This document shows, piece after piece, positions 7,075 to 64,000 of a DNA stretch of 64,000 bases (position 1 is the first letter of the stretch; the number at the start of each line of letters is the position of its first letter). This DNA is from an uncultured Candidatus Saccharibacteria bacterium. Lineage in GTDB: Bacteria > Patescibacteriota > Minisyncoccia > UBA6257 > 1-14-0-10-40-38. Where the stretch lies: positions 104,577 to 168,576 of the forward strand of contig CAZIWN010000001.1 in assembly GCA_964543265.1 (NCBI GenBank), read 5' to 3'. The position numbers and the translations under genes were made by a program. The notes under the pieces are model-generated. The model was not told the DNA's origin. It made no database searches and saw only the letters and a list, made by a program, of their open reading frames with translations.

Positions 7075-7080
7075 AGTAGT

Positions 7081-13797: not shown

Positions 13798-14115
13798 ATG
13801 ATTAATTGGAGCAGTAAAGAAATTGAAAAATTAGTTACAGCAATTCTTCTTTTAGAAACAGAAGAAGATGCCAAAACATTTTTAAGAGATTTAATGACAG
13901 AAAAGGAAATTAGAGAATTTTCAAAACGCTTACAAGTCGCAGAAATGCTTAGTAATAAAATCTCTTATTCAGTTATTGAAAAAGAAACAGGTTTAAGCTC
14001 AACCACAATTGCCAGAGTTGCCAAATGGCTAAACGGCAAAGAGGGTGGATATAAAAATATTTTAGATAAACTGCATCGCCATAGCGCCTTACAGGTCGGT
14101 AGAAGGTTGTCTTAA
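13798..14115 (+). CDS. TrpR-like YerC/YecD family DNA-binding protein.
   Basis: Motif ...EEDAKTFLRDLMTEKEIREFSKRLQVAEML.......IEKETGLSSTTIARV. Confidence 0.75.
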   Translation: MINWSSKEIEKLVTAILLLETEEDAKTFLRDLMTEKEIREFSKRLQVAEMLSNKISYSVIEKETGLSSTTIARVAKWLNGKEGGYKNILDKLHRHSALQVGRRLS

Positions 14116-14216
14116 TGTTGGATAAATCATTAAGCTAACCTTCTCCTGAGTTGGAGAAAAGGGTCTGCTGGTCACCCTAAAAGACTAGCAACGGTTCTTT
14201 GACAAGGGAGAGAGTC

Positions 14217-14417
14217 ATGAACAGTCACATGCACCCGCACGATCACGATCACGGCGTTCGCGCTTCCGACGATCGGCATCACGGTGTTCACGGCGACCAC
14301 AGTGATCACAGCGACAGTGGCCACAGGCACCACAGGGGTGCGCACGGTCACGATCACAAGGCGCACGGTCACCACCACGGGTCGGTCCACAAGCAGAAGA
14401 GGGGCGGCGCGCACTGA
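14217..14417 (+). CDS. Histidine-rich 66-aa peptide (about 38% His) with GC-rich codons; likely metal binding.
   Basis: SD site AAGGGAG lies 6 nt upstream of the ATG at 14217. The run is MNSHMHPHDHDHG...HGHDHKAHGHHHGSVH. A terminator follows. Confidence 0.55.
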   Translation: MNSHMHPHDHDHGVRASDDRHHGVHGDHSDHSDSGHRHHRGAHGHDHKAHGHHHGSVHKQKRGGAH

Positions 14418-14493
14418 TTTCGTATTCCGCGATTTGTCAGAGATGTCATCATGAAGTCTTTTCCAAGTCCGAAGTCCGGTATTCAATACGAAA

Positions 14494-14538
14494 AAGGAGT
14501 TGATCACGATACGTCGAGATCAACTCCTTTTAATTTTT
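14494..14538. terminator. Bidirectional terminator AAGGAGTTGATC...GATCAACTCCTT followed by a T-tract.
   Basis: 12-bp perfect stem. Confidence 0.8.
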
Positions 14539-14775
14539 AAATAAAGATATTTTATCAACTCTTTTTAGTTTTTTAATCGCTGCCTCTCTCTGTTTAGCTT
14601 CTCGTAAAGTTTCAAAAGTTTCGTGATATACAAGCTTAACCGGACGGCGTATCTTCGTGTAGTGCGCCCCAGATTTTAATTCATTATGTTCTCTCAATCT
14701 TTTTTCTAAGTTATTAGTTGATCCTACGTAAAGTGTTTTATCTGCGCATTCAAGAATATAGGTAAAATATGGCAT
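14530..14775 (-). CDS. Stand-alone GIY-YIG domain protein (YhbQ/UPF0213-like).
   Basis: Motif YFTYILECADKTLYVGSTNNLEKRLREHN. Confidence 0.85.
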   Translation of the reverse strand: MPYFTYILECADKTLYVGSTNNLEKRLREHNELKSGAHYTKIRRPVKLVYHETFETLREAKQREAAIKKLKRVDKISLFKN

Positions 14776-14781
14776 TGCGGC

Positions 14782-14851
14782 TGCGGGACCTGGGCTCGAA
14801 CCAGGATACCAGCTTTCAGAGAGCTGTGTCCTACCATTAGACGATCCCGCA
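14782..14851 (-). tRNA. tRNA-Gln (anticodon CUG) with a U1:A72 pair; CCA is not encoded.
   Basis: Cloverleaf folded by hand: acceptor TGCGGGA/TCCCGCA, U8, anticodon stem CAGCT/AGCTG with loop CTCTGAA, and T-arm CTGG TTCGAGC CCAG. Confidence 0.8.
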
Positions 14852-25248: not shown

Positions 25249-25407
25249 ATGTTTGAAAATTTTAAAAATTGGTTTAAAGAAAATGAAAAGAAGATATTAT
25301 TTATCCTTATAATATTTCTAAGTATCACTTTAAGTTTAGGATTAGGATTCTTGCTTGGAAAAAAATCAAAAGTCACACCAATTATTATCGAGAAAAATTC
25401 AAATTAA
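25249..25407 (+). CDS. 52-aa single-TM peptide (MFENFKNWFKENEKKILFILIIFLSITLSLGLGFLLGKK...).
   Basis: Hand-translated small ORF in native AT-rich sequence, followed by a strong terminator. Confidence 0.35.
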   Translation: MFENFKNWFKENEKKILFILIIFLSITLSLGLGFLLGKKSKVTPIIIEKNSN

Positions 25408-25414
25408 ATTTTAA

Positions 25415-25456
25415 GTGCCACCTCCAGCGCTTGCGCTAAATAGGTGGCACTTTTTC
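25415..25456. terminator. Terminator GTGCCACCT...AGGTGGCAC followed by TTTTT; also T-rich on the minus strand.
   Basis: 9-bp perfect stem. Confidence 0.8.
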
Positions 25457-25466
25457 TTCCCCGTCT

Positions 25467-25688
25467 TCAGTTCAGGACGGTGACGAATCTCCCGATTGGT
25501 GTGAAGACTTGTTCACCGTCGACGATCTCGAGTTGTCCGAGAACTTCGCCACATCCCGGTACGGGGCAAGAAACGTTTGAGTGTTTGCAGGACGGGGCAG
25601 CGACCTTGCACTGGCCATACCTTCCTTCCCACTTGCAAACGCACCTGATCTGCGTCTCCGCACCGCACTCCTTCTGACTCATCGTCAT
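25467..25688 (-). CDS. Cys-rich 73-aa protein with 8 Cys (CGAETQIRCVCKWEGRYGQCKVAAPSCKHSNVSCPVPGCG) and GC-rich codons.
   Basis: SD site AGGAGG lies 9 nt upstream of the ATG at 25688. It is wedged between a terminator and the rnpB promoter. Confidence 0.5.
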   Translation of the reverse strand: MTMSQKECGAETQIRCVCKWEGRYGQCKVAAPSCKHSNVSCPVPGCGEVLGQLEIVDGEQVFTPIGRFVTVLN

Positions 25689-25761
25689 TTCTTTCCGCCT
25701 CCTGAAGCTGGATTCGAAACTAGACATAATAATAACAATAATTAAGCCAAAAAGGCAAGAT

Positions 25762-25790
25762 TTGTCTATTTTTAATATTTATGGTATACT
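25762..25790 (+). promoter_or_regulatory. rnpB promoter TTGTCT-17-TATACT.
   Basis: Spacing places the transcription start near 25797, which is the first nucleotide of the P1 helix. Confidence 0.55.
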
Positions 25791-25796
25791 TTTAAA

Positions 25797-26141
25797 GTCG
25801 CTTAGGTGATTACACGGCATCGCAAAAAAATGCCGTGAGGAAAGTCTGGACTCCTGTCTTGCGAGAAATCGCAAGTAAACGTACCGGTTAAAAGCCGGCT
25901 GGGTAATCCAAGAGGTGCGAAAAGTGACGCTCAAAGACGAAAGAATTTGAGAATCCGCTTGCGGATTAACCTTCTCTATAGTGAAGGAGAGGGGTGCAAC
26001 GGCTAAATCCTTACGAGGTGCAAGATCGTGCTCTAAATTAAAACTTAGAGAGAATCGCTTGAGCCTTAAAGTAATTTAGGGCCTAGATAAATTATCACCG
26101 CTTCGCCGAAAGGCGGAAACAGAATCCGGCTTATTAGCGAC
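25797..26141 (+). ncRNA. rnpB: RNase P RNA (bacterial type A).
   Basis: Conserved GAGGAAAGUCUGGACUCC (P4 5' strand), ACAGAAUCCGGCUUA (P4 3' strand) and a P1 pairing GTCGCT/AGCGAC, followed by a terminator. Confidence 0.85.
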
Positions 26142-26155
26142 AAAAAATATCAGAA

Positions 26156-26180
26156 GTCCGCGCCTAAAGCGCGGATTTTT
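26156..26180 (+). terminator. rnpB terminator TCCGCGC ctaaa GCGCGGA followed by TTTTT.
   Basis: Read from the sequence. Confidence 0.8.
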
Positions 26181-26196
26181 GATATATGGTTTAATA

Positions 26197-26225
26197 TTGC
26201 TTTTATGACAACAATCTGTTATTAT
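26197..26225 (+). promoter_or_regulatory. Candidate promoter TTGCTT-17-TATTAT for the small membrane ORF.
   Basis: Read from the sequence. Confidence 0.4.
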
Positions 26226-26269
26226 GATTAACAGTTCTTCGGTTAAGGTCATTGGGAGGGAAGGCCTTG

Positions 26270-26458
26270 GTGGAATTCGGAAAGAGGCTTTGCTTCGCTC
26301 TGGTCTGGACTGTTTCCTGGGTTCTTCCGAAGGAATCTAGGGACGAGGAAGAAGAGGTGAGTGGTGTCTTGAAGCTTCTCCTCTTCGCCCTTGTCGGAGT
26401 TGGAACGGCCTTGGTTCTTCACTTCTATCGGATGAGGCAAAACTTCATCCAGATTTGA
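26270..26458 (+). CDS. Small two-TM membrane protein of 62 aa from the GTG start (68 aa if the TTG at 26252 is used), GC-rich.
   Basis: SD site GGGAGGGAAGG lies 5 nt upstream of the GTG. Two hydrophobic helices are separated by an acidic EEEE loop. A terminator follows. Confidence 0.45.
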   Translation: MEFGKRLCFALVWTVSWVLPKESRDEEEEVSGVLKLLLFALVGVGTALVLHFYRMRQNFIQI

Positions 26459-26477
26459 AAGAAGGCCAAGTGTCTCA

Positions 26478-26558
26478 AATGGCGTGCTGCCACCAAGTAG
26501 CGCGCCATTTTTTTTGTAAAAAAAGACCACCCATTACTCGCTCGCGAGCTAGGGTGGT
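26478..26558. terminator. Pair of convergent terminators sharing a central T8/A7 tract: ATGGCG...CGCCAT followed by T8 on the plus strand, and ACCACCC...GGGTGGT followed by a T-tract on the minus strand.
   Basis: Read from the sequence. Confidence 0.65.
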
Positions 26559-26570
26559 TTTCTGTCGCTG

Positions 26571-26789
26571 TTAACGAGGAGTAGTCGCTTCCCCGAACAG
26601 CATCGGTACTTCTATCAGATGCTTTTTATTGCATCCCTTCTTGCATTTCGGATGCGTCGAGCTCCCAAAATATGTATTGCCCTTTGGGATCTTACCACCG
26701 CACCCAGTGCAGGTACGATCCAAATGGGCAACATGATGTTCTGGAACCTCATCATCCTCTTCGTCGCTTCCGCCGTTGCCTCCACGCAT
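26571..26789 (-). CDS. Small zinc-ribbon protein of 72 aa from the ATG (CTGCGGKIPKGNTYFGSSTHPKCKKGC), acidic N-terminus.
   Basis: SD site GGGGAGGG lies upstream of the ATG. Its own promoter TTGAAA-17-TATAGT (26845-26873, minus strand) and its own terminator flank it. Confidence 0.5.
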   Translation of the reverse strand: MRGGNGGSDEEDDEVPEHHVAHLDRTCTGCGGKIPKGNTYFGSSTHPKCKKGCNKKHLIEVPMLFGEATTPR

Positions 26790-26876
26790 TGGGTTCGCCC
26801 TCCCCGTGAATGGATTGATGGTCAAGAAACGTGTACTGATATTTACTATAAAACATTCTTAAATAATTTTCAAAAT

Positions 26877-26920
26877 GAAAAGGCCCGGCTAGAACTATAC
26901 GTTCTATAACCGGACCTTTT
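26877..26920. terminator. Bidirectional terminator with a long imperfect stem GGCCCGGCTAGAAC tatac GTTCTATAACCGGACC, flanked by A4 and T4.
   Basis: Read from the sequence. Confidence 0.65.
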
Positions 26921-26946
26921 GCTCCGTCTTGCGGAGCCGTCGCCTT

Positions 26947-27153
26947 TCAGGCGGTGGCAACTGCGAGTTGCCGGCTCTCGGCGCGGAGCTCTGCGAGTTC
27001 TCCGCTCGAGAACAGATTGAGCAGTTCAGGCCACGTCGGCATCCTGCCGAGCTTCCGAGCCTTCCGCGCGATGATCTGCCGCATCGTGGGCACCGCGACC
27101 TCTTCTGAGCACTGATCGCAACCATTCGCGCAGCACTTGGATTCGCACGCCAT
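26947..27153 (-). CDS. Cys-rich 68-aa protein (N-terminal CESKCCANGCDQC, basic/helical C-terminus).
   Basis: A GGGGGG tract lies 7 nt upstream of the ATG. Copy B of the consensus promoter sits about 90 nt upstream. Confidence 0.5.
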   Translation of the reverse strand: MACESKCCANGCDQCSEEVAVPTMRQIIARKARKLGRMPTWPELLNLFSSGELAELRAESRQLAVATA

Positions 27154-27246
27154 CGTAGTTCCCCCCGAATGCCATTCTGATTTCGCCCTAAGGCTCGTCA
27201 GAGGACTTGTGAATGACTAGGGCCAATCCCTTATCATCACTCCTAT

Positions 27247-27276
27247 ATTATATCATACAATATATTAATTTGTCAA
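27247..27276 (-). promoter_or_regulatory. Near-perfect sigma70 promoter TTGACA-18-TGaTATAAT, copy B of the repeated promoter module.
   Basis: Read on the minus strand: CTATTGACAAATTAATATATTGTATGATATAAT. Confidence 0.7.
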
Positions 27277-27469
27277 TAGATAAAGCATAAAAAGCTAATA
27301 AAATAAGGATTTTAATATAAAAAATCTTAAAAATAAGGATTTTTTAACAACTCCAAATTTTCACCTCTTTACAAATTAAATTTACTTTGATATAATATGG
27401 AAATGAAGGTTGGACTCAAATCGTTATTAATAGTAGCGATGAGTCCAAAAAATAATTTAAAATAACTAT

Positions 27470-29485
27470 ATGTTTAAAAAAATTATACTTTTAAATATTG
27501 CAATTCTCTCGATATTCTTTATCGATTCAAACCATAGCAAAGCTTTGGCTTCTTTTCCTGGCTATTGTTCTGGTGAAACAATAATTTTTGCTCAAGACAT
27601 AGCGGGAGTTACCCCAGGGCATAACGCTGACACGGCTATTATTAATGATAGAAGCGGAACTCGTTTAGCAACTATTAATCAGGTTAGTGATGATTATGTG
27701 GTTTTTCCTAATGATTATTATATTAAGCTTTATTCTGGAGAAAGAATCGTTTATGCCGGAGCTCAAAAAGCTAATTTAACTTTTGAAATAACAGACAATA
27801 ATTATTCTGTTTTAAATAGTTATTCTTTCGGAGTTACTGGATCTGGTAGAAAAGAAGTTCCAATATCTCAAGATGGTTATATCCATTTTATTAAAAATTT
27901 TAAATCCAATCAGGCAAGCTGGGTAATTATTTGTCCAACATCAGGATATAATCCTCCAACATCTAATAATCAGATAACCTGGAATCAGATCCAAACCCAA
28001 TATGTAAATGTTGGCAGTCTTTTGCAGTTTTCTGTTTCCGCAAACAGCTCAACCGGAAGAACAATTTCATACAGCGTAGTTAATTTGGCCCAAGGAGCTT
28101 CTTTCGATTCTAATACGAGACAATTTTCTTGGACTCCAAATCAGCCAGGAACATTTAATGTAACTTTTAGAGCCAATGATGGAATTAATTCTTCTGATAT
28201 GAATGTTTCCATAATTGTAAACGGTATAGGTGGTGGCAACGGTTGTTACTACGGTTGCAATAATAGTTGCGGATATAATTACAGCAATGATTATATATAT
28301 TCAGGTCCTTCTGTTGTAGAGCGTTATGACATTTTCAATATATTCGGAAACTCAAATCATTATAATTACAATAATTGCAATACTAGTTGCGGTTATTATG
28401 GAAATTGTAATTACAACAGTGGTTATTACTATCAGACCTATAATGTCTATGGTCCAACTTGGAACATAATCACTAATCAAACTGGTTATGCTGGACAGCT
28501 TTTAAGATTCGTAGTTTTAGCTAATAGCCAAAACGCTTCCAATCTTTCTTATTCCGCTTTTAATCTTCCTTCTGGAGCATCTTTTGATTCTGTTACTAGA
28601 ACGTTTTCTTGGGTTCCAGGATTTAATCAAGTAGGAACTTATCATGTTTTATTTAGGGTAACAGATGGATTTTCAGCTTCTCAAGACATGAATGTGACGG
28701 TGACTATTTTAAATGGCGGCGCTTCAGCTCCAAACTTTACAGTCTTTGATCCTCCAACTACTGGAGTCGAAAATCAAACATGGACATATACAGTTCAAGC
28801 AGTTTCAACGGGAGGTGGTGGAGTTGTTTATAGATTACTAACCGCTCCAGCTGGTATGACTATCGGTCAATATTCCGGAACTATTAATTGGGTTCCAAAT
28901 TCTTCTCAAGGAAGACCAGCTCCATACCTAGTAACCGTTGGAGCCTCTTCTGGATATGCAGAAAATACAAGATCATTTAACTTAACCATAACCGACTTGG
29001 ATGGAAATTATTCCAACTACATTCCACCTTACCAATCACAAGGCTCTGGATCTTATGCCAGAAAACCAAACATCTATAATATAAACGTGGACAGTATAGA
29101 TGGAGGTATTCGTGTTTCTTGGAGTACAGATATTCCGGCTAAAGGAAGGGTGATTTACGGAAAAGAATCTCAAGCCAATAAAGGTGAGCCATATTCATAT
29201 TCCAACGCCACAAATTATTCCGAAGTTAATAAAGATAATTCAGTTAATTTAACTGGGTTAGAGGATAATCAAACTTATTATTTAAGAATCGTTGCTGATG
29301 CTTCTGGTGCAGTTTCTACTAGTGAAGAGTTTAGTCATGTGTTTATAGCTTCAGCTGGGTTAGGGCTTGGTCTTGCTCTAGCTTCTTTAGGTGCTCTACT
29401 TTCTAATGGATGGTTTTGGTTAATAGTTTTAATAGTTGTAACGATTTTCTACATCTATCCCAGATTTATTAAAAAAACATCATAA
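27470..29485 (+). CDS. Large secreted, surface-anchored protein with putative Ig-like (He_PIG-type) repeats, a Cys/Tyr/Asn-rich low-complexity segment and a C-terminal TM anchor.
   Basis: Signal peptide. Three repeats of the pattern YS..NL..GASFDS.TR.FSW.P...GT..V.FR..DG. C-terminal GLGLGLALASLGALL...WLIVLIVV. Confidence 0.6.
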   Translation: MFKKIILLNIAILSIFFIDSNHSKALASFPGYCSGETIIFAQDIAGVTPGHNADTAIINDRSGTRLATINQVSDDYVVFPNDYYIKLYSGERIVYAGAQKANLTFEITDNNYSVLNSYSFGVTGSGRKEVPISQDGYIHFIKNFKSNQASWVIICPTSGYNPPTSNNQITWNQIQTQYVNVGSLLQFSVSANSSTGRTISYSVVNLAQGASFDSNTRQFSWTPNQPGTFNVTFRANDGINSSDMNVSIIVNGIGGGNGCYYGCNNSCGYNYSNDYIYSGPSVVERYDIFNIFGNSNHYNYNNCNTSCGYYGNCNYNSGYYYQTYNVYGPTWNIITNQTGYAGQLLRFVVLANSQNASNLSYSAFNLPSGASFDSVTRTFSWVPGFNQVGTYHVLFRVTDGFSASQDMNVTVTILNGGASAPNFTVFDPPTTGVENQTWTYTVQAVSTGGGGVVYRLLTAPAGMTIGQYSGTINWVPNSSQGRPAPYLVTVGASSGYAENTRSFNLTITDLDGNYSNYIPPYQSQGSGSYARKPNIYNINVDSIDGGIRVSWSTDIPAKGRVIYGKESQANKGEPYSYSNATNYSEVNKDNSVNLTGLEDNQTYYLRIVADASGAVSTSEEFSHVFIASAGLGLGLALASLGALLSNGWFWLIVLIVVTIFYIYPRFIKKTS

Positions 29486-34484: not shown

Positions 34485-34502
34485 CGGTCTTCTTTTTTAA
34501 TC

Positions 34503-34532
34503 TTGACAATATATCTATTTAGGGAATAAAAT
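34503..34532 (+). promoter_or_regulatory. Consensus-like promoter TTGACA-18-TAAAAT at the start of a GC-rich islet.
   Basis: Read from the sequence. Confidence 0.6.
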
Positions 34533-34590
34533 TAAATTCCACGCGCTTTAAGAGGAAGCGCGCAGAAATCACTTGTCGAAGGGAGATTGA

Positions 34591-34821
34591 ATGGGTGCGA
34601 AGAGGGGATCTACGGTGAGGCAGGGATCTGTTGGCGGCGCCTCTTCTTCTACTGTCTTGAACCGACTGGCTCAACCCGACTGGAAGTTCAAGGGGGTTGA
34701 ACCGATTCGCGGGGCGATGAAGGGGTGCAGGTCTTGCACCTTCGATGGCGTGCCTCACGGTCAGTTCAGGGTGGGTGGTCCGAGGGGCGTCGTCTCCAGG
34801 TGTCCTTGCACGAACAGGTGA
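34591..34821 (+). CDS. Small 76-aa ORF (CRSC...CPC) in a GC-rich islet; coding status uncertain.
   Basis: SD site GAAGGGAG lies 6 nt upstream of the ATG. The Gly/Arg/Ser/Val-rich composition is typical of a random GC-rich translation. A 5' UTR hairpin CGCGCTT/AAGCGCG precedes it and a strong terminator follows. Confidence 0.35.
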   Translation: MGAKRGSTVRQGSVGGASSSTVLNRLAQPDWKFKGVEPIRGAMKGCRSCTFDGVPHGQFRVGGPRGVVSRCPCTNR

Positions 34822-34825
34822 TTTT

Positions 34826-34866
34826 TCAGCCCGGCTTTCCGAAAAGGAAGCCGGGCTGTATAATTT
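34826..34866 (+). terminator. Terminator CAGCCCGGCTTTCC gaaaa GGAAGCCGGGCTG followed by TATAATTTAT.
   Basis: 13-bp near-perfect stem. Confidence 0.8.
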
Positions 34867-34872
34867 ATATAA

Positions 34873-35256
34873 ATGAAAAAAGTTATGGTTTTCGGCGACT
34901 TCGATGGCCTTCATGAGGGTCATAGATTTTTTCTACGAAGCGCCAGAAAGTATGGAGATTATTTAATAGTGGCAGTTTCTCAAGATCATATTATCAAGCA
35001 TTTAAAAGGAGAATATCCAATAAAGAATTTTGCCGAACGCTTTGAGCACTTAGAAAATTATGACGATGTAAATCAAGTTGTCATTGGTGATCCGGAAAAC
35101 TCCCCAATTAATTTGATAAAAAAATATAATCCCGATATAGTTGTCTTATCTAAAAATCAAGAATTTTTACAAAACGAGATAGAAAGAAATTACGAAAATT
35201 TTTCTAAAAAAATTGAATTAAAGATAGTAGACGTTGGAGAAATAAAAATTTATTAA
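34873..35256 (+). CDS. Cytidylyltransferase-like (HxGH) nucleotidyltransferase domain protein (FMN adenylyltransferase-like).
   Basis: Motif VFGDFDGLHEGHRFFL. Confidence 0.55.
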   Translation: MKKVMVFGDFDGLHEGHRFFLRSARKYGDYLIVAVSQDHIIKHLKGEYPIKNFAERFEHLENYDDVNQVVIGDPENSPINLIKKYNPDIVVLSKNQEFLQNEIERNYENFSKKIELKIVDVGEIKIY

Positions 35257-35261: not shown

Positions 35262-36557
35262 ATGCTAGATATAAAATTCATCAAAGAAAACGCTGATTTG
35301 GTTCAAAAAGTCAGTAATGAAAAAGGTTATAAGGTTGATGTTTCTGAGACTCTTAAGCTTTATAATGAGCAAAACTTAATTCTTCAGAAAATAGAAGGAT
35401 TGAGAAAAGAAAGAAATGAATTAGCAGCCCTTTCAAAAAATTCCAAACCCACAGAAGAGCATATTAAACGCGGAAAAGAGATAAAATCAGAAATTACCAA
35501 TCTTGAAGAATCTCTTAAAAAAGCCGAAAGCGATTTTTTAATTTCAATAAAAAAAATTCCAAACATTTATTCAGAAGATGTTCCTAAGGGAAAATCAGAA
35601 GATGAAAATGTTGTGGTTAAAACAGTAGGCGAAATTCCAAAATTTAAATTTACTCCCAAAAATCATTGGCAATTAGGTGAGGCTAAACACTGGATAGATA
35701 AAGAAAGAGCCACTAAAGTCGCCGGCACTCGTTTTGCGTATCTTATGGGAGATATGGTCCGCTTAGAATGGGCTCTTATGCGTTTTGCTATGGACGTTTT
35801 AACCGACGAAAAAACTTTAAAGAAAATAATTAAGGCTAATAATTTAAAAGTTTCTTCCAAACCATTTATTCCAGTTCTTCCTCCTTATATGATCAAAACA
35901 GAGCAATATGATGCTATGGATAGACTCGAGCCAAGAGAAGAAAGATATAAAATCGAAGGTGAAGATCTCTGGCTTCAAGGTTCCGCTGAGCACGTTTTAG
36001 GCAGTATGCACTCCGATGAAATTTTTAACGAAAGTGAATTACCGTTAAGATATGTCGGCTTTGCCACATCTTTTAGAAAAGAAGCTGGAAGCTATGGAAA
36101 AGATATGGAGGGCATTATCCGTCTTCATCAATTTAATAAGATGGAATTAGAAAGTTTTTCTGTAAAAGAAAATGGTATGCAAGAACATTTATTTTTTGTC
36201 GCCATTCAAGAGTATTTAATGAAAACACTAGAGCTTCCTTATAGGGTTGTAATGAAATGCACCGCAGATATCGGCAAACCAAACGCCAGAGGAATTGATA
36301 TTGATGTTTGGCTCCCTGGGCAAAATAAATATCGCGAAACTCACACAGCAGATTATATGACCGACTATCAAGCGCGCAGGCTTAAAACCAGAGTCAGAAG
36401 AGCCGATAATTCAGTTGAATTAATCCACACCAACGACGCCACTGCTCTTTCTCAAAGGCCATTAATAGCTATCTTAGAAAACAATCAAAGAGAAGACGGA
36501 TCAATCGAAATTCCTAAAGTTTTGCGTCCATACATGAACGGTAGAAAAGTTATTTAA
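35262..36557 (+). CDS. serS: Seryl-tRNA synthetase.
   Basis: N-terminal coiled-coil arm and the class II core (RFAYLMGDMVRLEWALMRFAMD). Confidence 0.85.
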   Translation: MLDIKFIKENADLVQKVSNEKGYKVDVSETLKLYNEQNLILQKIEGLRKERNELAALSKNSKPTEEHIKRGKEIKSEITNLEESLKKAESDFLISIKKIPNIYSEDVPKGKSEDENVVVKTVGEIPKFKFTPKNHWQLGEAKHWIDKERATKVAGTRFAYLMGDMVRLEWALMRFAMDVLTDEKTLKKIIKANNLKVSSKPFIPVLPPYMIKTEQYDAMDRLEPREERYKIEGEDLWLQGSAEHVLGSMHSDEIFNESELPLRYVGFATSFRKEAGSYGKDMEGIIRLHQFNKMELESFSVKENGMQEHLFFVAIQEYLMKTLELPYRVVMKCTADIGKPNARGIDIDVWLPGQNKYRETHTADYMTDYQARRLKTRVRRADNSVELIHTNDATALSQRPLIAILENNQREDGSIEIPKVLRPYMNGRKVI

Positions 36558-36565
36558 TTTTAAAT

Positions 36566-36600
36566 GCCCAACCATTTTCACGGTTGGGCATTTTATTTGT
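36566..36600. terminator. Terminator GCCCAACC attttcac GGTTGGGC followed by a T-tract (bidirectional).
   Basis: Read from the sequence. Confidence 0.8.
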
Positions 36601-36762
36601 TTATCTTTTCGGCTTTTTATTTGGTTTACATATCAACCATACCATTAAAGCCAAAAGCCCAAGGGCAATAAGTGCGATGTTCCAAGGATTTATCCCAAAA
36701 TCCTTAGCTGTTGTTATTATCTCTCGCGACCATCCTGGCATTGGACACTTGCTGTCTTGCAT
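36601..36762 (-). CDS. 53-aa protein with a C-terminal TM helix (MQDSKCPMPGWSREIITTAKDFGINPWNIALIALGLLALMVWLICKPNKKPKR).
   Basis: SD site AAGGGG lies 6 nt upstream of the ATG. Candidate promoter TTGATA-16-TAGACT lies upstream on the minus strand. Hand-translated. Confidence 0.4.
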   Translation of the reverse strand: MQDSKCPMPGWSREIITTAKDFGINPWNIALIALGLLALMVWLICKPNKKPKR

Positions 36763-36838
36763 CTTTTTCCCCTTAGTTTTTTGCCATTTGTGCTGTTTTC
36801 TAGTCTACAAGAATATTTTTAATTATCAAAACTTAAAT

Positions 36839-36884
36839 AAAAAAAAGAACCCGAGAACCGCTCTGGATGAGCTAGCTCTCGGGC
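36839..36884 (-). terminator. Minus-strand terminator CCCGAGA...TCTCGGG followed by TTCTTTTTTTT.
   Basis: Read from the sequence. Confidence 0.6.
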
Positions 36885-37089
36885 TGCAGAACAGTCCACA
36901 TTCACGATCCCGAAAAGAGTTACGACGATTTCCTCGAGGACTTACGTCTCAGGGTTCGATTGAGGGGAAGAAGCCAAGCTGAAGTTCGATCCAATTGCAC
37001 CATCTTTCGCCGGCGTTTGAATCTCTCCCTTATACGCTTTTCTAAAGATCGAGGTGAACTTTCCGCCCGTATATAATATCATATTTCTT

Positions 37090-37273
37090 TAAAAACAAAA
37101 AAATCCGAGAATCATGTACTTGCGCACAAGATTCTCGGATCCAGGAACCCTCTTTGCTAGGGACATCATTGGAAGGTTTGCAGTGCTATGGAATTAATCG
37201 TGCTCTGCGCAGGATCTTACCAAGGCTGTTGCATTCTTTCCGTTGGAAACCTAGCTCATACGGCTAACCTGGT
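37090..37273 (-). ncRNA. Candidate small RNA of about 180 nt. Promoter TTGACA-17-TATATT (37281-37309, minus strand), then an ORF-less body, then an 11-bp perfect hairpin terminator ATCCGAGAATC...GATTCTCGGAT with a T7 tract.
   Basis: No ORF longer than 26 aa and no SD site. Strong promoter and terminator. Identity unknown. Confidence 0.4.
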
Positions 37274-37334
37274 TAATTTAAATATAACAATATTACATCT
37301 TTATGTCAAATTTGTAACAAATTAACATTTATTT

Positions 37335-38399: not shown

Positions 38400-38445
38400 A
38401 AATTAAACCGCCAGGACCCTTGTTGGGCGCTGGCGGCGTTTAGTT
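38400..38445. terminator. Bidirectional terminator CCGCCAG...CTGGCGG.
   Basis: A-tract upstream; T-tract on the minus strand. Confidence 0.65.
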
Positions 38446-38451
38446 CAATAC

Positions 38452-38802
38452 TTAGCCCGTAGGCTCAGTATACGTAGCATCAAGAATAAAACTCTTCTTT
38501 TGATCAAAGGTTCCACTGAATTTATCATCTCCGCGCTTAACAGCAATTCTAACAGGAACCCACACGTGTCCGAATGTTGCATCTGCCTTGCGATACATCG
38601 TACAGGTTACCGAAACCGGAAGCAGGCCCTGAGCTGGTCCACGATTTTTAAGACTTAAGGTAAATGTTCTGATGTCCAGAAACCGCGTAGCTTCGATATC
38701 CATAGCATTCCACACGGAGTCATTATCTCCGTCAACCGTGCTAATTGCGATTTGCGTCATCCTGATTGCCAAAAGCACGCCAGCAGCCAAGCTCATTTTC
38801 AT
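38452..38802 (-). CDS. Secreted 116-aa protein (signal peptide MKMSLAAGVLLAIRMTQIAIS), GC-rich codons.
   Basis: SD site GGAG lies 6 nt upstream of the ATG at 38802. Copy C of the consensus promoter lies upstream. Confidence 0.5.
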   Translation of the reverse strand: MKMSLAAGVLLAIRMTQIAISTVDGDNDSVWNAMDIEATRFLDIRTFTLSLKNRGPAQGLLPVSVTCTMYRKADATFGHVWVPVRIAVKRGDDKFSGTFDQKKSFILDATYTEPTG

Positions 38803-38940
38803 CGGACATCTCCTTGTCAAAAGGGGATTCACTCCAGGGGTCAACCCAGAAAGTGGCAGCCATCACGGCAGCACCTTAGAAGCAAGAATAAGTCTTCTTT
38901 CCAAAGTGCCACCGTGACAACCTCTCAATATGCTTATAAA

Positions 38941-38970
38941 ATTATAGCACAATATTACTATAAAAGTCAA
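38941..38970 (-). promoter_or_regulatory. Near-perfect sigma70 promoter TTGACT-18-TGcTATAAT, copy C of the repeated promoter module.
   Basis: Read on the minus strand: CTATTGACTTTTATAGTAATATTGTGCTATAAT. Confidence 0.7.
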
Positions 38971-39029
38971 TAGTCACAAAACCCATATAAATTAGTCAAA
39001 ATAGGTCATTTAGGTTATTATAAATTCCA

Positions 39030-40962: not shown

Positions 40963-41352
40963 ATGTTTATAAAATTTCCTAAAGATACTCCAAGTATTTC
41001 TTGGACACGCCATATTAAAAATAAGATGGCTTTTTATGGCCTTTCTGAATCAAAAATAAAATCTATACTTGCTTATCCAAAACGCAAAGAAGAGGGTATT
41101 GCTCCTGATACTTTTGCTTCAATGAAGCGAAATGATAAAAAAGAAAAAAAGGAAGAGATTTGGATAATGTATCTAGATAAAAAAGAAAAAATGAAGGTAT
41201 CAAAGCTCAAAAAAAGATCAAAGATTTTAATGATCAGTGCTTGGCGTTATCCGGGAATTTCAAAGCCAGGCTCTCAAATACCAATTCCTGAAGATATTTT
41301 AAATGAAGTAAAAGGATTTTTTAAAATTCAGGAAAATTCTAGTCTTTTGTAA
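40963..41352 (+). CDS. Hypothetical protein.
   Basis: ORF only. Confidence 0.4.
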   Translation: MFIKFPKDTPSISWTRHIKNKMAFYGLSESKIKSILAYPKRKEEGIAPDTFASMKRNDKKEKKEEIWIMYLDKKEKMKVSKLKKRSKILMISAWRYPGISKPGSQIPIPEDILNEVKGFFKIQENSSLL

Positions 41353-41353
41353 A

Positions 41354-41382
41354 TTGACATTTAGATTCCTTATTGTTAAAAT
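41354..41382 (+). promoter_or_regulatory. Consensus promoter TTGACA-17-TAAAAT.
   Basis: Read from the sequence. Confidence 0.65.
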
Positions 41383-41389
41383 TGTAGGA

Positions 41390-41707
41390 CAAGCGAGTTT
41401 AGAGGTCGCAAGTCAGCCTTCTGACGCCAAAGTTCTCAAGCTCCTTCTTCGCACTTCGCAAGCGTCTTTAGGTCTAAAAAATGGACTCTCGACCTTCATC
41501 GGGAGTTGACCTTCCGTTTTCACTGGTCACAAATCCAGTGACCGCTGGCTAACCGATTACGACCAGGTTATCCGACACGGTGAGTAATCTCTGGGACAAT
41601 TAGATGTAACTAACCAGGGAGCGGTAAGAAATTGCGCCTCAAAAACTCGCGCGGTGCCCCAAGCTTCGAGCAGGGTGAAAGACAACCCTGCTCGAAGCTA
41701 CTTTTTT
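41390..41707 (+). ncRNA. Candidate ncRNA of about 320 nt (GC about 50%), bounded by the consensus promoter and a 15-bp perfect hairpin terminator AGCTTCGAGCAGGGT...ACCCTGCTCGAAGCT followed by T6.
   Basis: No ORF longer than 28 aa on either strand and no SD site. Identity unknown; I found no match to tmRNA, SRP RNA or RNase P RNA motifs. Confidence 0.45.
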
Positions 41708-41723
41708 AAAATAAATATAAAAC

Positions 41724-45332: not shown

Positions 45333-45366
45333 AAAGGCAAATCTTGTATAGATTTGCCTTTTTAAA
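45333..45366 (+). terminator. Terminator GGCAAATCT tgtata AGATTTGCC followed by TTTTT.
   Basis: Read from the sequence. Confidence 0.8.
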
Positions 45367-45379
45367 TACTATATGTTAT

Positions 45380-45638
45380 CCTTATAAGCGTCGGTAGGGC
45401 TGACTTTGTCTTAGCTCTGATAAGTGGGACACTTTGTGCCCACAACGAAATTCGGCGAATAGAGAGGCGTGGTCGCAAGATCACAATAGCTCCTCTCGTC
45501 AGAGTACGAGCAAATCAGCCCTACCGACACCATTTCAAAAACAAGGCACACGGTGCTGCTGGTACCCCCCCGTACCAGACACCGCTGAGTCACTGGTCCG
45601 ACGCTACCCGCAAGGGCGCGCTCGGACCTATTTTTTTA
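45380..45638 (+). ncRNA. Candidate structured ncRNA of about 260 nt. A 14-bp long-range helix (45390-45403 pairing with 45515-45528) encloses 111 nt. Then a GGTAC-C6-GTACC hairpin and a terminator GTCCGA...TCGGAC followed by T7.
   Basis: No credible ORF. Helices read directly from the sequence. Possible promoter TTGTAT-18-TACTAT (45344-45373). Confidence 0.4.
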
Positions 45639-45649
45639 CAATCTTAATT

Positions 45650-45676
45650 AAAACCCCGCCAATCGGCGGGGTTTTC
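45650..45676. terminator. Bidirectional terminator AAAACCCCGCC aatc GGCGGGGTTTT; it also terminates typA.
   Basis: Read from the sequence. Confidence 0.8.
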
Positions 45677-47479
45677 TTATTCAGTTCTCTTTCTTAGCGC
45701 ATTCTTTAAAATTCTTTTTCTTAATCTTATAGATGTTGGAGTGGCTTCTACCAATTCATCATCTCCAATATACTCCAAGGCCTCTTCAAGGGTTAATTTT
45801 TTAGCTGGCACCAAATCATCAGTTACAGCATCTGTTTTTGCTCTAAAGTTAGTCAACTGTTTAGCTTTACAAACATTTACCACCAAATCTTCTGATTTTG
45901 CATTTTGTCCTACAACTTGTCCTTCATAAACATCTTCTGCTGGAGCCACAAACATAACTCCTCTTTCTTGAGAGCTTAATAGAGCATAGGCGGTAGATTT
46001 TCCGGCCTCATGTGCAACCAAGGATCCATGTGGGCTAGTTTCTAATCCCTGTATTTTTGGGAAATATCCAGCGCTTAAACTATTTATAATTCCCATACCT
46101 TTAGTTTCTATAAGTAATTGATTTCTAAATCCAATAAGGCCCCTGGTAGGAATAAAGAAGTGAAACGCCACAGTTCCATTATCAACTGCCATATTTTTCA
46201 TTTCTCCCTTACGTTCACTTATCTTTTGAATAACCATTCCCGAATATTTTTCTGGTGCTTCAATCCAAACATCTTCGAATGGCTCCATGGTTACTCCGTT
46301 TTCTTCATTGAAAATAACTTCTGGTCTCGAAACTTGAAGTTCGTATCCTTCGCGTCTCATTTTTTCAATTAAAATTGAAAGGTGAAGTTCTCCTCTTCCG
46401 CTTACAATAAATTCGTCTGCAGATTTACCCTGCACAACCTGTAGCGCAACATCGCTATCTAATTCTTTCTCTAATCTTTCTTTTAGGTTTCTTGAAGTGC
46501 AATATTCTCCCTCTCTGCCAGCAAAAGGGGACGTATTTACTCCAAAAATCATTTTAACCGTAGGTTTTTCTATAACGATTGGCTTCATTCCTTTTGGATT
46601 TTCAGCTTCAGAAATAGTGTCTCCAATCATAATATTATCCACTCCAGCCACAGCTCCGATATCTCCAGCCACAAGCTCTGGAACTTCAACTTTTCCAAGT
46701 CCCGAAAAGACCATTAAGTTTGTAAGCTTAACTTTAGAAATTTCTCCATTTCTATGAACTACAGAAATCATCTGCCCAGATTTCATCTTTCCAGCAGTCA
46801 CTCTTCCAATTCCAATTTTTCCCTTAAAGTTGTCATAAGCTAAGGAAACAACCATCATTTGTAGTGTTTCATTTATTTCTGCTTTAGGTGTTGGGATGTG
46901 TTTAATAATCTCTTCAATTAATGGTTTAACTCCAGTCATATTCTCAAGTTCTGGGGCCATTCCAGTCTTTCCCAATCTTCCAGAAGCATAAACGATAGGG
47001 AAATTAAGCTGATCGTTATTTGCTCCTAATTCTATAAATAATTCTATAGTTTTTTCTAAAACATAATTAATTCTTGCATTGGGTTTATCAATTTTATTTA
47101 TAACTACAATAATCTTATGTCCCATCGCCAATGCTTTCTTTAAAACGAATCTTGTTTGAGGCATTGGGCCTTCTTGAGCATCGATAAGTAAAAGCGAACC
47201 ATCAGCCATATTTAAAACGCGCTCAACTTCTCCTCCGAAGTCTGCGTGTCCAGGGGTGTCTATGATATTAATTTTATATTCACCATAACGAACAGAAGCA
47301 TTTTTAGAGAATATAGTAATTCCTCTTTCTCTTTCAATTTCGTTAAAGTCCATTATCATCGATCCACCCTCTCCAAGCCTTCCAAGATCAGTTTCGGATT
47401 GTCTCAAAAGCGCATCAACTAAAGTTGATTTTCCGTGGTCGACGTGAGCAATAATTGCGATATTTCTTAAGTTATTCAT
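45677..47479 (-). CDS. typA: Translational GTPase BipA/TypA.
   Basis: G1 motif AIIAHVDHGKSTLVD and an EF-G-like domain organisation. Confidence 0.95.
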   Translation of the reverse strand: MNNLRNIAIIAHVDHGKSTLVDALLRQSETDLGRLGEGGSMIMDFNEIERERGITIFSKNASVRYGEYKINIIDTPGHADFGGEVERVLNMADGSLLLIDAQEGPMPQTRFVLKKALAMGHKIIVVINKIDKPNARINYVLEKTIELFIELGANNDQLNFPIVYASGRLGKTGMAPELENMTGVKPLIEEIIKHIPTPKAEINETLQMMVVSLAYDNFKGKIGIGRVTAGKMKSGQMISVVHRNGEISKVKLTNLMVFSGLGKVEVPELVAGDIGAVAGVDNIMIGDTISEAENPKGMKPIVIEKPTVKMIFGVNTSPFAGREGEYCTSRNLKERLEKELDSDVALQVVQGKSADEFIVSGRGELHLSILIEKMRREGYELQVSRPEVIFNEENGVTMEPFEDVWIEAPEKYSGMVIQKISERKGEMKNMAVDNGTVAFHFFIPTRGLIGFRNQLLIETKGMGIINSLSAGYFPKIQGLETSPHGSLVAHEAGKSTAYALLSSQERGVMFVAPAEDVYEGQVVGQNAKSEDLVVNVCKAKQLTNFRAKTDAVTDDLVPAKKLTLEEALEYIGDDELVEATPTSIRLRKRILKNALRKRTE

Positions 47480-47526: not shown

Positions 47527-47554
47527 TTGACTAAAGATAATATTTGTCTATAAT
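47527..47554 (+). promoter_or_regulatory. Consensus promoter TTGACT-16-TATAAT.
   Basis: Read from the sequence. Confidence 0.6.
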
Positions 47555-47599
47555 AATAAAACCCTTAATTTTGAGGGGGTAAAAGGGAGGGATTGATAG

Positions 47600-47791
47600 A
47601 TGAGCTCTTCTGGTTCTGCGACGGCTGCACCAATCATCAGGGGACGTTGCTTAGAGCTTCGCTCCAACGCCCTTTCTCGTCGGGCTAGAAACGTGAATCA
47701 TCGCGCATTGAGCGATCACGCTCGCACCTGCGCCAGCTGCAGGGACCACCTTGCATCGCTCGCCGCCAAGCAATCGAGCTCGGCGTCTTGA
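47600..47791 (+). CDS. Small 63-aa ORF with an HxxxCxxC (ZAS-like) motif (HARTCASC); coding status uncertain.
   Basis: SD site AAGGGAGGG lies 9 nt upstream of the ATG. The Arg/Ser/Ala-rich composition could be a random GC-rich translation. A terminator follows. Confidence 0.35.
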   Translation: MSSSGSATAAPIIRGRCLELRSNALSRRARNVNHRALSDHARTCASCRDHLASLAAKQSSSAS

Positions 47792-47796
47792 GCCAA

Positions 47797-47838
47797 ATAC
47801 TCCGATAGGCCACGGGTCTGTCGGAGTATTTTATTTTC
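47797..47838 (+). terminator. Terminator ATACTCCGA...TCGGAGTAT followed by TTTATTTT.
   Basis: Read from the sequence. Confidence 0.75.
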
Positions 47839-48940
47839 CTAAGCTTTCAATAATCGCAATCTCAAGCGGTATAAAAGAAAAAGGAGAATACCTCATTTCA
47901 GAATAAGCTCTAATTAACGATTTTAATAGATTAATTAAAAACTTTTCATCAGCGCTAATGGAAAGATTTTTTAATTTATTCAGTTCGGTAGTCGTAAATT
48001 CTTCCACAAATATTTTTTCAAAATCAGGATTTGCTTTCAGGGCTAAAATTTTTCTCAAAAAATGTATCAATTCTTTAGCTGAATCAACAATACTTATTCC
48101 GTTGTTATAAATCGCATTTACCGCCTCGATAGATTCTTTAGTTTTTTTATTTAATATCAACTCTGCTAAATTAGAAATCTTTTTAAATCCGGCTTTTCCT
48201 AAAATAGATTCAACCTTGTCGGCGGTAATTTTTTCTTCCAAACTTCCCATTTGGTCAAGTATAGATTCGGCGTCTCTAAATCCTCCTTCTGCGGTTTCTG
48301 CAATGAGTTCTAATGCCTCATCTTCTATGTCGATTTTTTCAGTTTTAGAGATGTCTTTTAATTTTTTAAATAATTTCTGAATAGGAATTTTCCTAAAATT
48401 AAATTTTTGGACACGCGACAAGATCGTTCCAGGAACTTTTTCATATTCCGTCGTAGCTAAAATAAATACAGCGTGAGCTGGTGGCTCTTCTAATGTCTTT
48501 AATAGCGCATTAAAAGCTTCTTTAGTTAACTGATGAACTTCGTCTATAATAAAAACCTTATATTTTGAAGATGTGGGGGATAGTTTAATAGATTCTTTTA
48601 AATCTCTAATTTCATCTATGCCCCTATTTGAAGCCGCATCCATTTCCACGACATCTAATGATTTTCCAGAATCGACATCTATACATTTAAGGCATTCATT
48701 GCAAGGCTCTCCTTTGGCGGCAAATTTTTTATCACTTTGGCGCGTTTCGCAATTTAATATTTTAGCCAAAATTCTAGCAACCGTCGTTTTTCCTGTTCCT
48801 CGACTGCCATAAAAAAGATAGGCATGCGAAATTCTGTCTTGAATTGCCGCGTTTTTTAATGTTTCAGTAATATGGTCTTCACCTAAAACATCTTCTAATT
48901 TTTTAGGTCTATATTTTCTATATAAAGCTCCTCCTTTCAC
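47831..48940 (-). CDS. dnaX: DNA polymerase III gamma/tau subunit (short form).
   Basis: Motifs GSRGTGKTT and a zinc module C..C..C. Confidence 0.9.
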   Translation of the reverse strand: MKGGALYRKYRPKKLEDVLGEDHITETLKNAAIQDRISHAYLFYGSRGTGKTTVARILAKILNCETRQSDKKFAAKGEPCNECLKCIDVDSGKSLDVVEMDAASNRGIDEIRDLKESIKLSPTSSKYKVFIIDEVHQLTKEAFNALLKTLEEPPAHAVFILATTEYEKVPGTILSRVQKFNFRKIPIQKLFKKLKDISKTEKIDIEDEALELIAETAEGGFRDAESILDQMGSLEEKITADKVESILGKAGFKKISNLAELILNKKTKESIEAVNAIYNNGISIVDSAKELIHFLRKILALKANPDFEKIFVEEFTTTELNKLKNLSISADEKFLINLLKSLIRAYSEMRYSPFSFIPLEIAIIESLGK

Positions 48941-62469: not shown

Positions 62470-62520
62470 AATTAAAAAGCCCCTCTCCTATCTCTTTCGA
62501 GTATAGGATTGGGGCTTTCG
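62470..62520 (-). terminator. Minus-strand terminator AAAGCCCC...GGGGCTTT followed by a T-tract on the minus strand.
   Basis: Read from the sequence. Confidence 0.6.
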
Positions 62521-62521
62521 T

Positions 62522-63220
62522 TCAGTGATTCCAGTTTGTAGCGACTTCGCTACCAAACTGGTTTGCCAGACAATTCCTGAAGCGTTCGTCTTCCTCCTTT
62601 TCCCTCTTCAGGATGTCTCCAATTCCCTGCTGGTTCTCTTCGAGCTTCTCGAAGCTCATTCCGCAGAAGGCGCTTCTCGCCAATTCTTCGCAGTTGCGAA
62701 GCTTGGCAAAGCCGACGACGAGATCATTCAGCTGGGACGGCGACAAATCGTGGGGGTTGATCTCAGGCAAGGTCTCGAATAGATTCATCGCCATCTTTTG
62801 GAGATGATCGAGATCCATCTTGCCTTCTGGGTCCTGCAAGTAATTCCAGGATTGATGATCAACCAAGCTCTTCTTATGGAGCTTGGTAAGTTCGTGCTTG
62901 AGAAAATCGTTTTCCTTCTTCAGGGCTTCGATTTCCTCGTGAGCGCTTGTGAGCTCTTGGGTGAGCTCGAGGATGTTGCTCTGGCTCTCGCCAGTTTCGA
63001 TCTGAGGCTCGATTGCGCTCCTCTCGGCAACGATCTCCGTTTCCGGAGCCGTCGGCGCAAGTGTCACAGCCTGGTAGGCTTCGATCTTGGTAGGGTCATC
63101 TCCAACGAAGTTTTGTTGAGGGTGACAACCATAATCGACGCCGTGATTGTTGTTTCCTGAAATTGCGAACATGGCAACGCAGAAAACAACAAGCGCAATC
63201 AATCCGACAATTCGCTTCAT
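62522..63220 (-). CDS. Secreted coiled-coil protein of 232 aa with GC-rich codons.
   Basis: Signal or TM anchor MKRIVGLIALVVFCVAMFAISG, heptad-rich middle and SD site AAAGGAG upstream. Second gene of a two-gene minus-strand operon. Confidence 0.55.
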   Translation of the reverse strand: MKRIVGLIALVVFCVAMFAISGNNNHGVDYGCHPQQNFVGDDPTKIEAYQAVTLAPTAPETEIVAERSAIEPQIETGESQSNILELTQELTSAHEEIEALKKENDFLKHELTKLHKKSLVDHQSWNYLQDPEGKMDLDHLQKMAMNLFETLPEINPHDLSPSQLNDLVVGFAKLRNCEELARSAFCGMSFEKLEENQQGIGDILKREKEEDERFRNCLANQFGSEVATNWNH

Positions 63221-63249
63221 AGCTGACAGCTCCTTTGTCTTTCGAGTGA

Positions 63250-63295
63250 TCCCGGAAGGATCTCTTTCACTACTTAAGCCGAGATCCTTCCGGGA
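63250..63295 (-). promoter_or_regulatory. Perfect 15-bp intercistronic hairpin TCCCGGAAGGATCTC...GAGATCCTTCCGGGA with no U-tract.
   Basis: Sits between two co-oriented genes; possible processing, stability or attenuation element. Confidence 0.45.
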
Positions 63296-63311
63296 ATCTT
63301 CTCGGCTGCCG

Positions 63312-63851
63312 TCAGTTGTGGATCTTGTTGTTCGAGCCCTGGTAGTTTTCGACGTTGGCGTCGCTCCTGCCGTTCAAGTCAACGTCGTTGCCGTTGTTCC
63401 CGCCATCGGGACCAGTGAGCAACCCACCACCTTCGAAGTCGTGATCGTTGTTGTCGCAGTTCTTCTCGTTGACGCCGCCACCGTTCTTGATGTCGATGTC
63501 ATTCCCGTCGCAATCGTCCAGCTTGATCTTGCCGCCATCGGCATCGATCTCGTCGCCGTTCAGGCCTTCACCGCGGGCCAGTACGCCCTTCTTGATGGTG
63601 ATCTTGGCCTTCACGTAGTCGCCGTGATTCCAGATCTCTTCGACGACGACGTTGTCCGCGCTGTCTGGGCTGTTGGTGACCTTTCCTTCTCCGTCCGGAG
63701 CGGTCCAGGTCTGGCCAGGTCCCAGGCGAGTCGTGTGCGTTCCCGATGACGATCCGCTCGTCGCCGCGTTGGCGACCGACGTCCCTCCTCCGATCGCGAA
63801 GATCGCGACCAGAGCGAGTGCGAGCAAGGCGAAAATCTTCCTCGGATTCAT
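63312..63851 (-). CDS. Secreted Asp/Gly/Asn-rich protein with DxDxDG-like repeats; putative Ca2+-binding protein.
   Basis: Signal peptide MNPRKIFALLALALVAIFAIGGGTSVANA. Loops DADGGKIKLDD, DGNDIDIKNGG and DNNDHDFEGGG. SD site AGGAG upstream. Confidence 0.55.
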   Translation of the reverse strand: MNPRKIFALLALALVAIFAIGGGTSVANAATSGSSSGTHTTRLGPGQTWTAPDGEGKVTNSPDSADNVVVEEIWNHGDYVKAKITIKKGVLARGEGLNGDEIDADGGKIKLDDCDGNDIDIKNGGGVNEKNCDNNDHDFEGGGLLTGPDGGNNGNDVDLNGRSDANVENYQGSNNKIHN

Positions 63852-64000
63852 GCGTTCACTCCTGTGTTTTGGCCCGTTTTCGGTTCTTAAGCGAAATCGG
63901 GCTTAAGCCTACCTCCCCTTCTTTCGTCGCTGTTTTGTCAAGGTGCTACGAATCTAGGGCTACACACCCCAGTTTCATACTTAACATTACTCCTTTAACA

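Follow-up and report, generated by a model that had tools for sequence, protein, structure and literature searches.

The low-GC stretch of DNA analysed here (64,000 nt in full and about 30–35% GC, hereafter the window) belongs to the genome of an ultra-small bacterium of the Patescibacteria or Candidate Phyla Radiation (CPR), organisms with small genomes that are almost all uncultured. Between serS (35262–36557, plus strand) and ddl (plus strand, ATG at 37350) lies a spacer of 792 nt, islet 7. An earlier note, made from the sequence alone, had placed three minus-strand units in this spacer, and all three are present at that position: unit A (about 37275–37090), unit B (about 37069–36839) and a miniprotein gene (36762–36601). 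We consider it probable that islet 7 consists of three separate co-directional genes, with A and B being two new, lineage-specific and free-standing genes for structured small RNAs (sRNAs) accompanied by a separate gene for the miniprotein.

The comparison with related genomes rests on a small set of contigs. The best relatives of SerS are found in metagenome-assembled genomes (MAGs) of 'Saccharibacteria' and other CPR bacteria (58–73% identity), and two public runs contain contigs identical to the window. Homologues of Ddl, 72–90% identical, led to syntenic contigs with the same serS–gap–ddl layout. The relatives' contigs compared with the window carry locus labels (L084–L090 and L109): L084, L085 and L086 represent one species (Ddl 90% identical), L087 comes from GCA_009694925.1 (73%), and L088 (72%) and L089/L090 (73%) complete the syntenic set. 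L109 is a 593-nt contig that was reached by a phmmer search with the miniprotein; like L089, it derives from groundwater.

Unit A, about 181 nt in length, is composed of a promoter, a rod and an intrinsic terminator. The promoter (37309–37281, minus strand) has the form TTGACA-17-TATATT announced in the earlier note; it agrees with the sigma-70 consensus at 11 of 12 positions and carries a TG before the −10 element, and its −35 element is kept as TTGACA or TTGACG in L084 and L088. The body (37275–37141) is an imperfect hairpin rod of ~135 nt, and the three homologues each fold independently into rods of this same length. It is followed by the terminator (37140–37090), a stem at 37140–37103 and then a T-tract, and the relatives carry an equivalent hairpin and T-tract. 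The stem had been described as a perfect helix of 11 bp, which does not hold: its 15-nt arms (37103–37117 and 37126–37140) are 93% complementary, and RNAfold predicts 11 pairs, an unpaired base on each side and five further pairs. Together with its terminator, unit A is far more stably folded than shuffled sequences (z = −5.07).

The basal half of the rod is too diverged for column alignment and is paired in each species. The conserved apical domain (37237–37175), 63–65 nt in length, aligns unambiguously. It comprises, in order, an 8-pair stem, a GC/GC step, UGG/CCA or UCU/GGA, an A-rich internal loop, a 4-bp stem, a conserved C–C mismatch, a 3-bp stem and a GAGA loop (GCAGA in the window). 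In the three sequences, 91.8% of the cells of this domain are paired and 13 of 21 pairs have changed on both sides. None of 500 shuffles reached this compensatory count, and slid controls were only 25–35% paired. Upstream, a palindrome, AATTTGT-T-ACAAATT (37300–37321), overlaps with the −35 regions of both unit A and ddl, whose promoters diverge, and L084 and L088 have kept it in part; it could be an operator common to the two promoters. The ddl gene itself appears to be leaderless or nearly so since a −10-like hexamer ends 5–7 nt before its ATG.

Unit B has an extended −10 promoter element, TGATATTAT (37081–37073, minus strand), just past the T-tract of the unit A terminator; TGNTATTAT of this element is invariant in four species. 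The conserved element places the start at about 37069 and the length at ~231 nt. The earlier note had given the correct terminator, GCCCGAGAG...UCUCGGGU with its T-tract, and a start at 37050 that is better moved to about 37069; its estimate of 170–180 nt for the candidate sRNAs is too short for B. The terminator occupies 36885–36839 (stem 36884–36850, T-tract to 36839), and in its helix 97.9% of the cells are paired and three pairs show compensatory change.

The body of unit B (37069–36886) folds into a closing rod of ~26 bp, made up of the helices P1, P1b, P2 and P3, and a branched head that consists of the P4 domain (AAGGGAGAGA...UCUUCCCCU) and the P6 hairpin; in L087 and L088 only, an extra hairpin is inserted into the head. 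P1 (GCAGAA/UUCUGC plus AG/CU around a bulged G) is nearly invariant on both strands, and the terminator starts 0–1 nt after it. P1b is followed by a bulge of 3–6 nt on the 3′ side. P2 and P3 have six pairs each with sequences almost wholly different between species, and in P3 five of the six pairs show compensatory change. The separately predicted folds of the homologues have this architecture in common, and the hand alignment was built on it. Over this alignment as a whole, standard pairs fill 96.7% of 180 cells, and both sides have changed in 17 of the 49 pairs. None of 500 shuffles reached the observed pairing values, while slid partners were 35–50% paired. Compensatory substitutions in a few related genomes thus keep the predicted folds of both A and B.

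Homologues of unit B occupy the corresponding position, in the same orientation, in L084/L086, L087, L088 and L109 (nhmmer E-values of 1e-47 to 1e-60), and a model built for this unit, R2, scores its relatives with 98.8–186 bits. Unit A, as judged by the corresponding model R1, is present only in the window, L084 and L088, and is cleanly missing in L087. Counting the window, B occurs in five lineages and A in three. L089/L090 contain neither unit and keep the miniprotein gene, with a miniprotein-to-ddl spacer of 142 nt. With A missing from L087 and neither unit retained in L089/L090, the predicted RNAs are accessory. Near serS in the loci of 80 GTDB species no homologue of A or B was detected by BLAST and nhmmer, and the closest SerS among these loci (73%) showed no synteny downstream. 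No further copies were found in the window by self-comparison or in 0.88 Mb of related loci with R1 and R2. A metagenome scan with a pattern derived from P1 and the terminator of unit B gave 18 matches, approximately the number estimated for chance, none of which fitted the B profile, and the same pattern had 0 matches in viral contigs. On this evidence the predicted units are confined to one small CPR clade. Model R2 also matches unit A weakly, which is explained by the similarity of the A and B terminators; this similarity may go back to an old tandem duplication that involved at least the terminator part.

No conserved open reading frame (ORF) was found in A or B on either strand, and minus-strand ORFs of at least 30 aa vary by species with the exception of the miniprotein. 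The 27-aa ORF reported earlier within unit B (37003–36920) does exist and is not conserved: its ATG reads ACG in L087 and is missing in L084, and in L088 a stop closes the frame after six codons. This ORF and a 46-aa ORF, both inside the units, were rejected as genes since they differ between species. A 195-aa ORF on the plus strand of L088 was likewise rejected because the other spacers match it in fragments and in scattered frames. The earlier proposal of ORF-less candidate sRNA units is therefore supported, the folds covarying in relatives without a conserved frame. Like independent bacterial sRNA genes, both units combine a conserved promoter of the sigma-70 type and a conserved terminator with the lack of a conserved frame.

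Several observations weigh against this interpretation. Such transcription signals are not in themselves unusual, with 19 promoter-like matches found versus 17.5 in shuffles and eight terminator-like matches versus 5.5. Unit B does not fold more stably than shuffled sequences (z −1.79 for the window and z +0.23 for L084), and no consistent alignment was obtained for the interior of P4. The covariation alignments comprise three to four sequences that were fitted by hand to the structures, and the shuffle control ignores phylogeny, so that the counts lean towards the model. Hand alignments were used because MAFFT introduced register shifts which gave poor RNAalifold results for the inner helices of B and for A; MAFFT alignments of unit B recover P1 and the terminator only. 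Finally, any function of the RNAs should be narrow given that L087 dispenses with A and L089/L090 with both units. As the signals are not enriched and only A, taken together with its terminator, has a remarkable folding energy, the case must rest on the comparison with relatives. Here the promoters, terminators and folds kept at the same position in syntenic genomes represent the signal that exceeds chance.

If this is correct, A and B would be transcribed as stable non-coding RNAs and would act in trans. We give about even chances to the idea that they work through their folded shape, binding a protein or an RNA as a structural partner, and not through a short antisense seed. Three features point in this direction: each RNA is helical over almost its full length, with selection acting on the structure; those unpaired bases that are conserved occur at junctions or within loops; and P1 of unit B does not vary on either strand, in contrast to the freely covarying P2 and P3.

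The main alternative is that A and B are ordinary seed-pairing sRNAs in which a short accessible stretch pairs with the ribosome-binding site of a target, for example that of the miniprotein gene. Free-standing promoter-to-terminator units of 180–230 nt are typical of such sRNAs, and CUUCUUCCCCU of unit B is complementary at 10 of 11 positions to the Shine–Dalgarno (SD) region of the miniprotein in the window. However, this stretch forms the 3′ strand of helix P4 and is thus paired inside the RNA. Complementarity between C/U-rich sequences and a purine-rich SD is generic, and by inspection it falls at non-homologous positions in the relatives. The near-complete helicity and the covariation of both RNAs would be unusual for sRNAs of the seed type, and unrestricted RNAduplex predictions between A, B and the miniprotein mRNA were uninformative. 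We therefore regard seed pairing as unlikely, if clearly the strongest of the competing explanations.

A more specific possibility concerns the P6 loop of unit B, which contains the palindrome UCCUCGAGGA (36940–36931, minus strand). Every unit B lineage has a palindrome in this loop (UCCUCGAGGA, UCUCGAGA, CCUCGAGG and, twice, CCUAGG), maintained by one paired C–G to U–A change and a symmetric 2-nt deletion, and no stable local hairpin can form from it. A second palindrome based on GCCGGC lies in P4 of three of the four full-length homologues (CGCCGGCG, UUGCCGGCAA and GCCGGC). Chance alone would produce about one palindrome of this length per sequence, so that only the conserved position and the paired changes deserve attention. 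A conserved P6-loop palindrome is what a loop–loop 'kissing' homodimer would need, and unit B might thus be a self-associating structured RNA, a suggestion that we make tentatively and think rather unlikely to be right.

The order of elements upstream of the miniprotein gene, namely a promoter, a structured domain of ~185 nt, a strong terminator and, ~75 nt further on, an ORF of the same orientation, resembles that of a riboswitch or attenuator, and one could imagine unit B as a cis-acting leader that governs read-through into the miniprotein gene. In contrast to such leaders, an independent and conserved promoter is placed between the B terminator and the ORF, and L090 carries this promoter although it lacks unit B. 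In L109 the terminator and the miniprotein promoter stand ~70 nt further apart. A candidate antiterminator pairing of UUUUCGGG with CCCGAGAG was seen in the window and not in L084 or L087 (by inspection, no formal search having been made), and the Rfam searches matched no aptamer class. With a conserved promoter intervening and no antiterminator seen to be conserved on inspection, a role of B as a leader is improbable.

The free-standing interpretation of A and B also raises the question of whether one or both could be a highly divergent housekeeping RNA such as 6S RNA or the RNA of the signal recognition particle (SRP). The known RNAs of this lineage are indeed divergent, as illustrated by the RNase P RNA that scores 95.5 bits versus a cut-off of 100. 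With its rod shape, GNRA-type apex and conserved internal loops close to that apex, unit A resembles the single long hairpin of 4.5S RNA, and its 3′ strand contains CCAAGGCA, as does 4.5S RNA. Unit B has the size of 6S RNA, the two units covering about 180–230 nt, and its ends pair in a long closing stem; the rod shape of A can be likened to 6S RNA as well. On the other hand, A has only small internal loops and no large central bubble, and it lacks the SRP helix-8 motif around the tetraloop, the strands that flank its apex differing from the helix-8 consensus; moreover, a separate terminator hairpin follows the rod. The head of B is multi-branched. The closing stem with central bubble for which the earlier note had suggested an RNAfold search was accordingly not seen in either unit. 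The 6S and SRP models were unlisted at E-values up to 10 in searches of ~1 kb each of the window, L087 and L088, and close relatives lack the units in this spacer, though a housekeeping gene could sit elsewhere there. We judge this explanation marginally less probable than that of a leader.

More generally, the predicted RNAs A and B match no described family. An Rfam 15 search of the islet gave no match at gathering thresholds, nor at E-values up to 10 in a 1.1-kb search, so that neither a ddl riboswitch, for which an Rfam check had been proposed, nor any other family was assigned to either unit. The lax matches were at chance level (RybB, L10 leader, PreQ1 and others, with E-values above 1), and the L087 and L088 spacers (~1 kb each) yielded scattered chance matches with no family in common. 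A lax scan of the whole window returned only tRNA-Gln and RNase P RNA. ARAGORN detected no tmRNA in the window, only the tRNA-Gln at 14779–14851. Full-text literature searches on small or structured RNAs of CPR/Patescibacteria and on 6S RNA found no relevant paper.

The nearest kind of known RNA we take to be the free-standing structured non-coding RNAs of GC-rich intergenic regions (IGRs) found by the GC-IGR approach, such as raiA, OLE and ROOL. Like these, A and B are GC-enriched intergenic units free of ORFs in a genome of ~32% GC, with their own promoter and terminator, an extensive conserved fold and no tie to a downstream gene. Unlike them, they belong to one small CPR clade, are far smaller than OLE or ROOL, and match none of these families in Rfam 15, by sequence or by model.

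A type I toxin–antitoxin-like locus, in which the hydrophobic protein would be the toxin and the B and/or A RNA the antitoxin, seems very improbable. A protein of 53–66 aa with one transmembrane (TM) stretch, in the window of 53 aa and with a basic tail, does adjoin sRNA genes, and the SD complementarity of 10 of 11 nt in the window could be seen in the same light. In contrast to type I systems, the RNAs are co-directional with and upstream of the miniprotein gene, not antisense to it. The protein and its promoter persist in L089/L090 without an RNA partner, and its conserved N-terminal motif and stable synteny differ from the usual patchy multicopy pattern.

It is equally improbable that the units are functionless relics of decayed genes or mobile elements with chance inverted repeats: their presence varies by species, their GC content is above that of the genome, the A and B terminators are alike and part of P4 resembles another ORF of the window, but compensatory changes keep ~50 and ~20 base pairs across species whose Ddl is only 72–90% identical, promoters and terminators are conserved, other copies are lacking in the window and the 0.88 Mb of related loci, and distant BLAST searches of phage and plasmid records found nothing.

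The ORF just mentioned (8912–9421) encodes 169 aa and lies in a promoter-to-terminator unit at 8842–9472 (plus strand; fold z −2.4). About 70 nt of the P4 region of unit B resemble its 5′ end, AUAAGGGGGAGACUGAAAUGCCGGCAA...GAUCGAAGUCUUCC, with a marginal nhmmer E-value of 0.008 in the window. It was rejected as a parent gene of unit B, there being no protein-level similarity to the islet. A search of 5.8 billion proteins yielded no relative of the predicted ORF product, and Pfam no family; the unit may be a gene or an RNA.

The reading of A and B as structured sRNA genes provides two concrete, covariation-supported RNA families with coordinates and models (R1 and R2) that can be used to search metatranscriptomes and MAGs. 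Should these families be expressed, part of a reduced episymbiont genome would be given over to clade-specific folded RNAs. In practical terms their value is modest, as they are limited to three to five lineages.

The third gene of the islet (36762–36601, minus strand) encodes the 53-aa miniprotein with an SD site AAGGGG (36774–36769) and a TM tail, as had been described before, and it turns out to be conserved, in synteny in six related lineages, and to have a promoter of its own. The protein begins with the motif MQDSKCP and ends in one hydrophobic C-terminal stretch followed by the basic tail KPNKKPKR. The promoter (36829–36802), TTGATA-16-TAGACT followed by a conserved start region A-AAA-CAGCACA, is kept in L084, L087, L109 and L090. 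The retention of this promoter in L109, and in L090 where the RNA units are missing, implies that the gene is its own transcription unit. Syntenic homologues of 59–66 aa occur in L087 (MPQEESKCPIPG..., 62 aa), L088 (MTGESKCPLG..., 59 aa), L089/L090 (MPQDSKCPVG..., 64 aa) and L109 (...MRQDSKCPVSG..., 66 aa), and the SKCP motif and a single C-terminal TM stretch recur in all of them. A Pfam search assigned no family, and phmmer found one relative only, L109, among 1.84 billion cluster representatives. The miniprotein is thus clade-specific, with a predicted C-terminal TM anchor and its own predicted promoter.

In L084 and L086, two independent assemblies, the miniprotein gene contains an in-frame TAA at codon 12 (L084 5386–5388, minus strand), and the TM part past this codon remains in frame and conserved. 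This interrupted gene could be a recent pseudogene, or could be expressed from a downstream ATG or by read-through. In L109, the ~70 extra nt between the B terminator and the miniprotein promoter (160–250) include an inverted repeat, TCATATCACACTTTTC...GAAAAAGTGTGATAGATGA. Between the convergent serS (plus strand) and miniprotein (minus strand) genes of the window lies a hairpin (36562–36593) with a 12-bp stem, an 8-nt loop and fully (100%) complementary arms; the T-rich sequence in both directions makes it a probable two-way terminator.

Against a background of ~32% GC, the window has about a dozen GC-rich stretches (45% GC or more), unit B being one of them, and most are without an ORF of a known family. 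They include 6401–7500, 8901–9500, 14101–14550, 25401–27250, 34501–34950, 38401–38950, 41351–41700, 45351–45750, 47551–47900 and 62501–63950. Two GC-rich intergenic regions, 34485–34872 (plus strand) and 41353–41723, are conserved at the DNA level in L084 and L087 (nhmmer E-values of 1e-20 to 1e-34). The former has a TTGACA-18-TAAAAT promoter, a 13-bp terminator and a 76-aa ORF that is not conserved as a protein. Both look like further candidate structured RNAs, and with A and B at least four GC-rich stretches would then resemble conserved non-coding RNA. If true, this would be an unusually rich set of structured RNAs for a reduced CPR genome, and the GC-rich stretches across the window suggest that many more such RNAs may exist.

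The RNase P RNA of bacterial class A (25797–26145, plus strand; 95.5 bits versus the Rfam gathering score of 100) sits in a largely GC-rich stretch of 2.2 kb (about 25250–27470) that has no ORF of 100 aa or more. In the spacer between ddl and alr only the edges are conserved, and it carries minus-strand ORFs of 130, 186 and 150 aa that are unrelated to each other (window 38400–39029, L084 7119–7679 and L087 7162–7614, respectively); L089 is without such a spacer, ddl and alr being separated by 69 nt.

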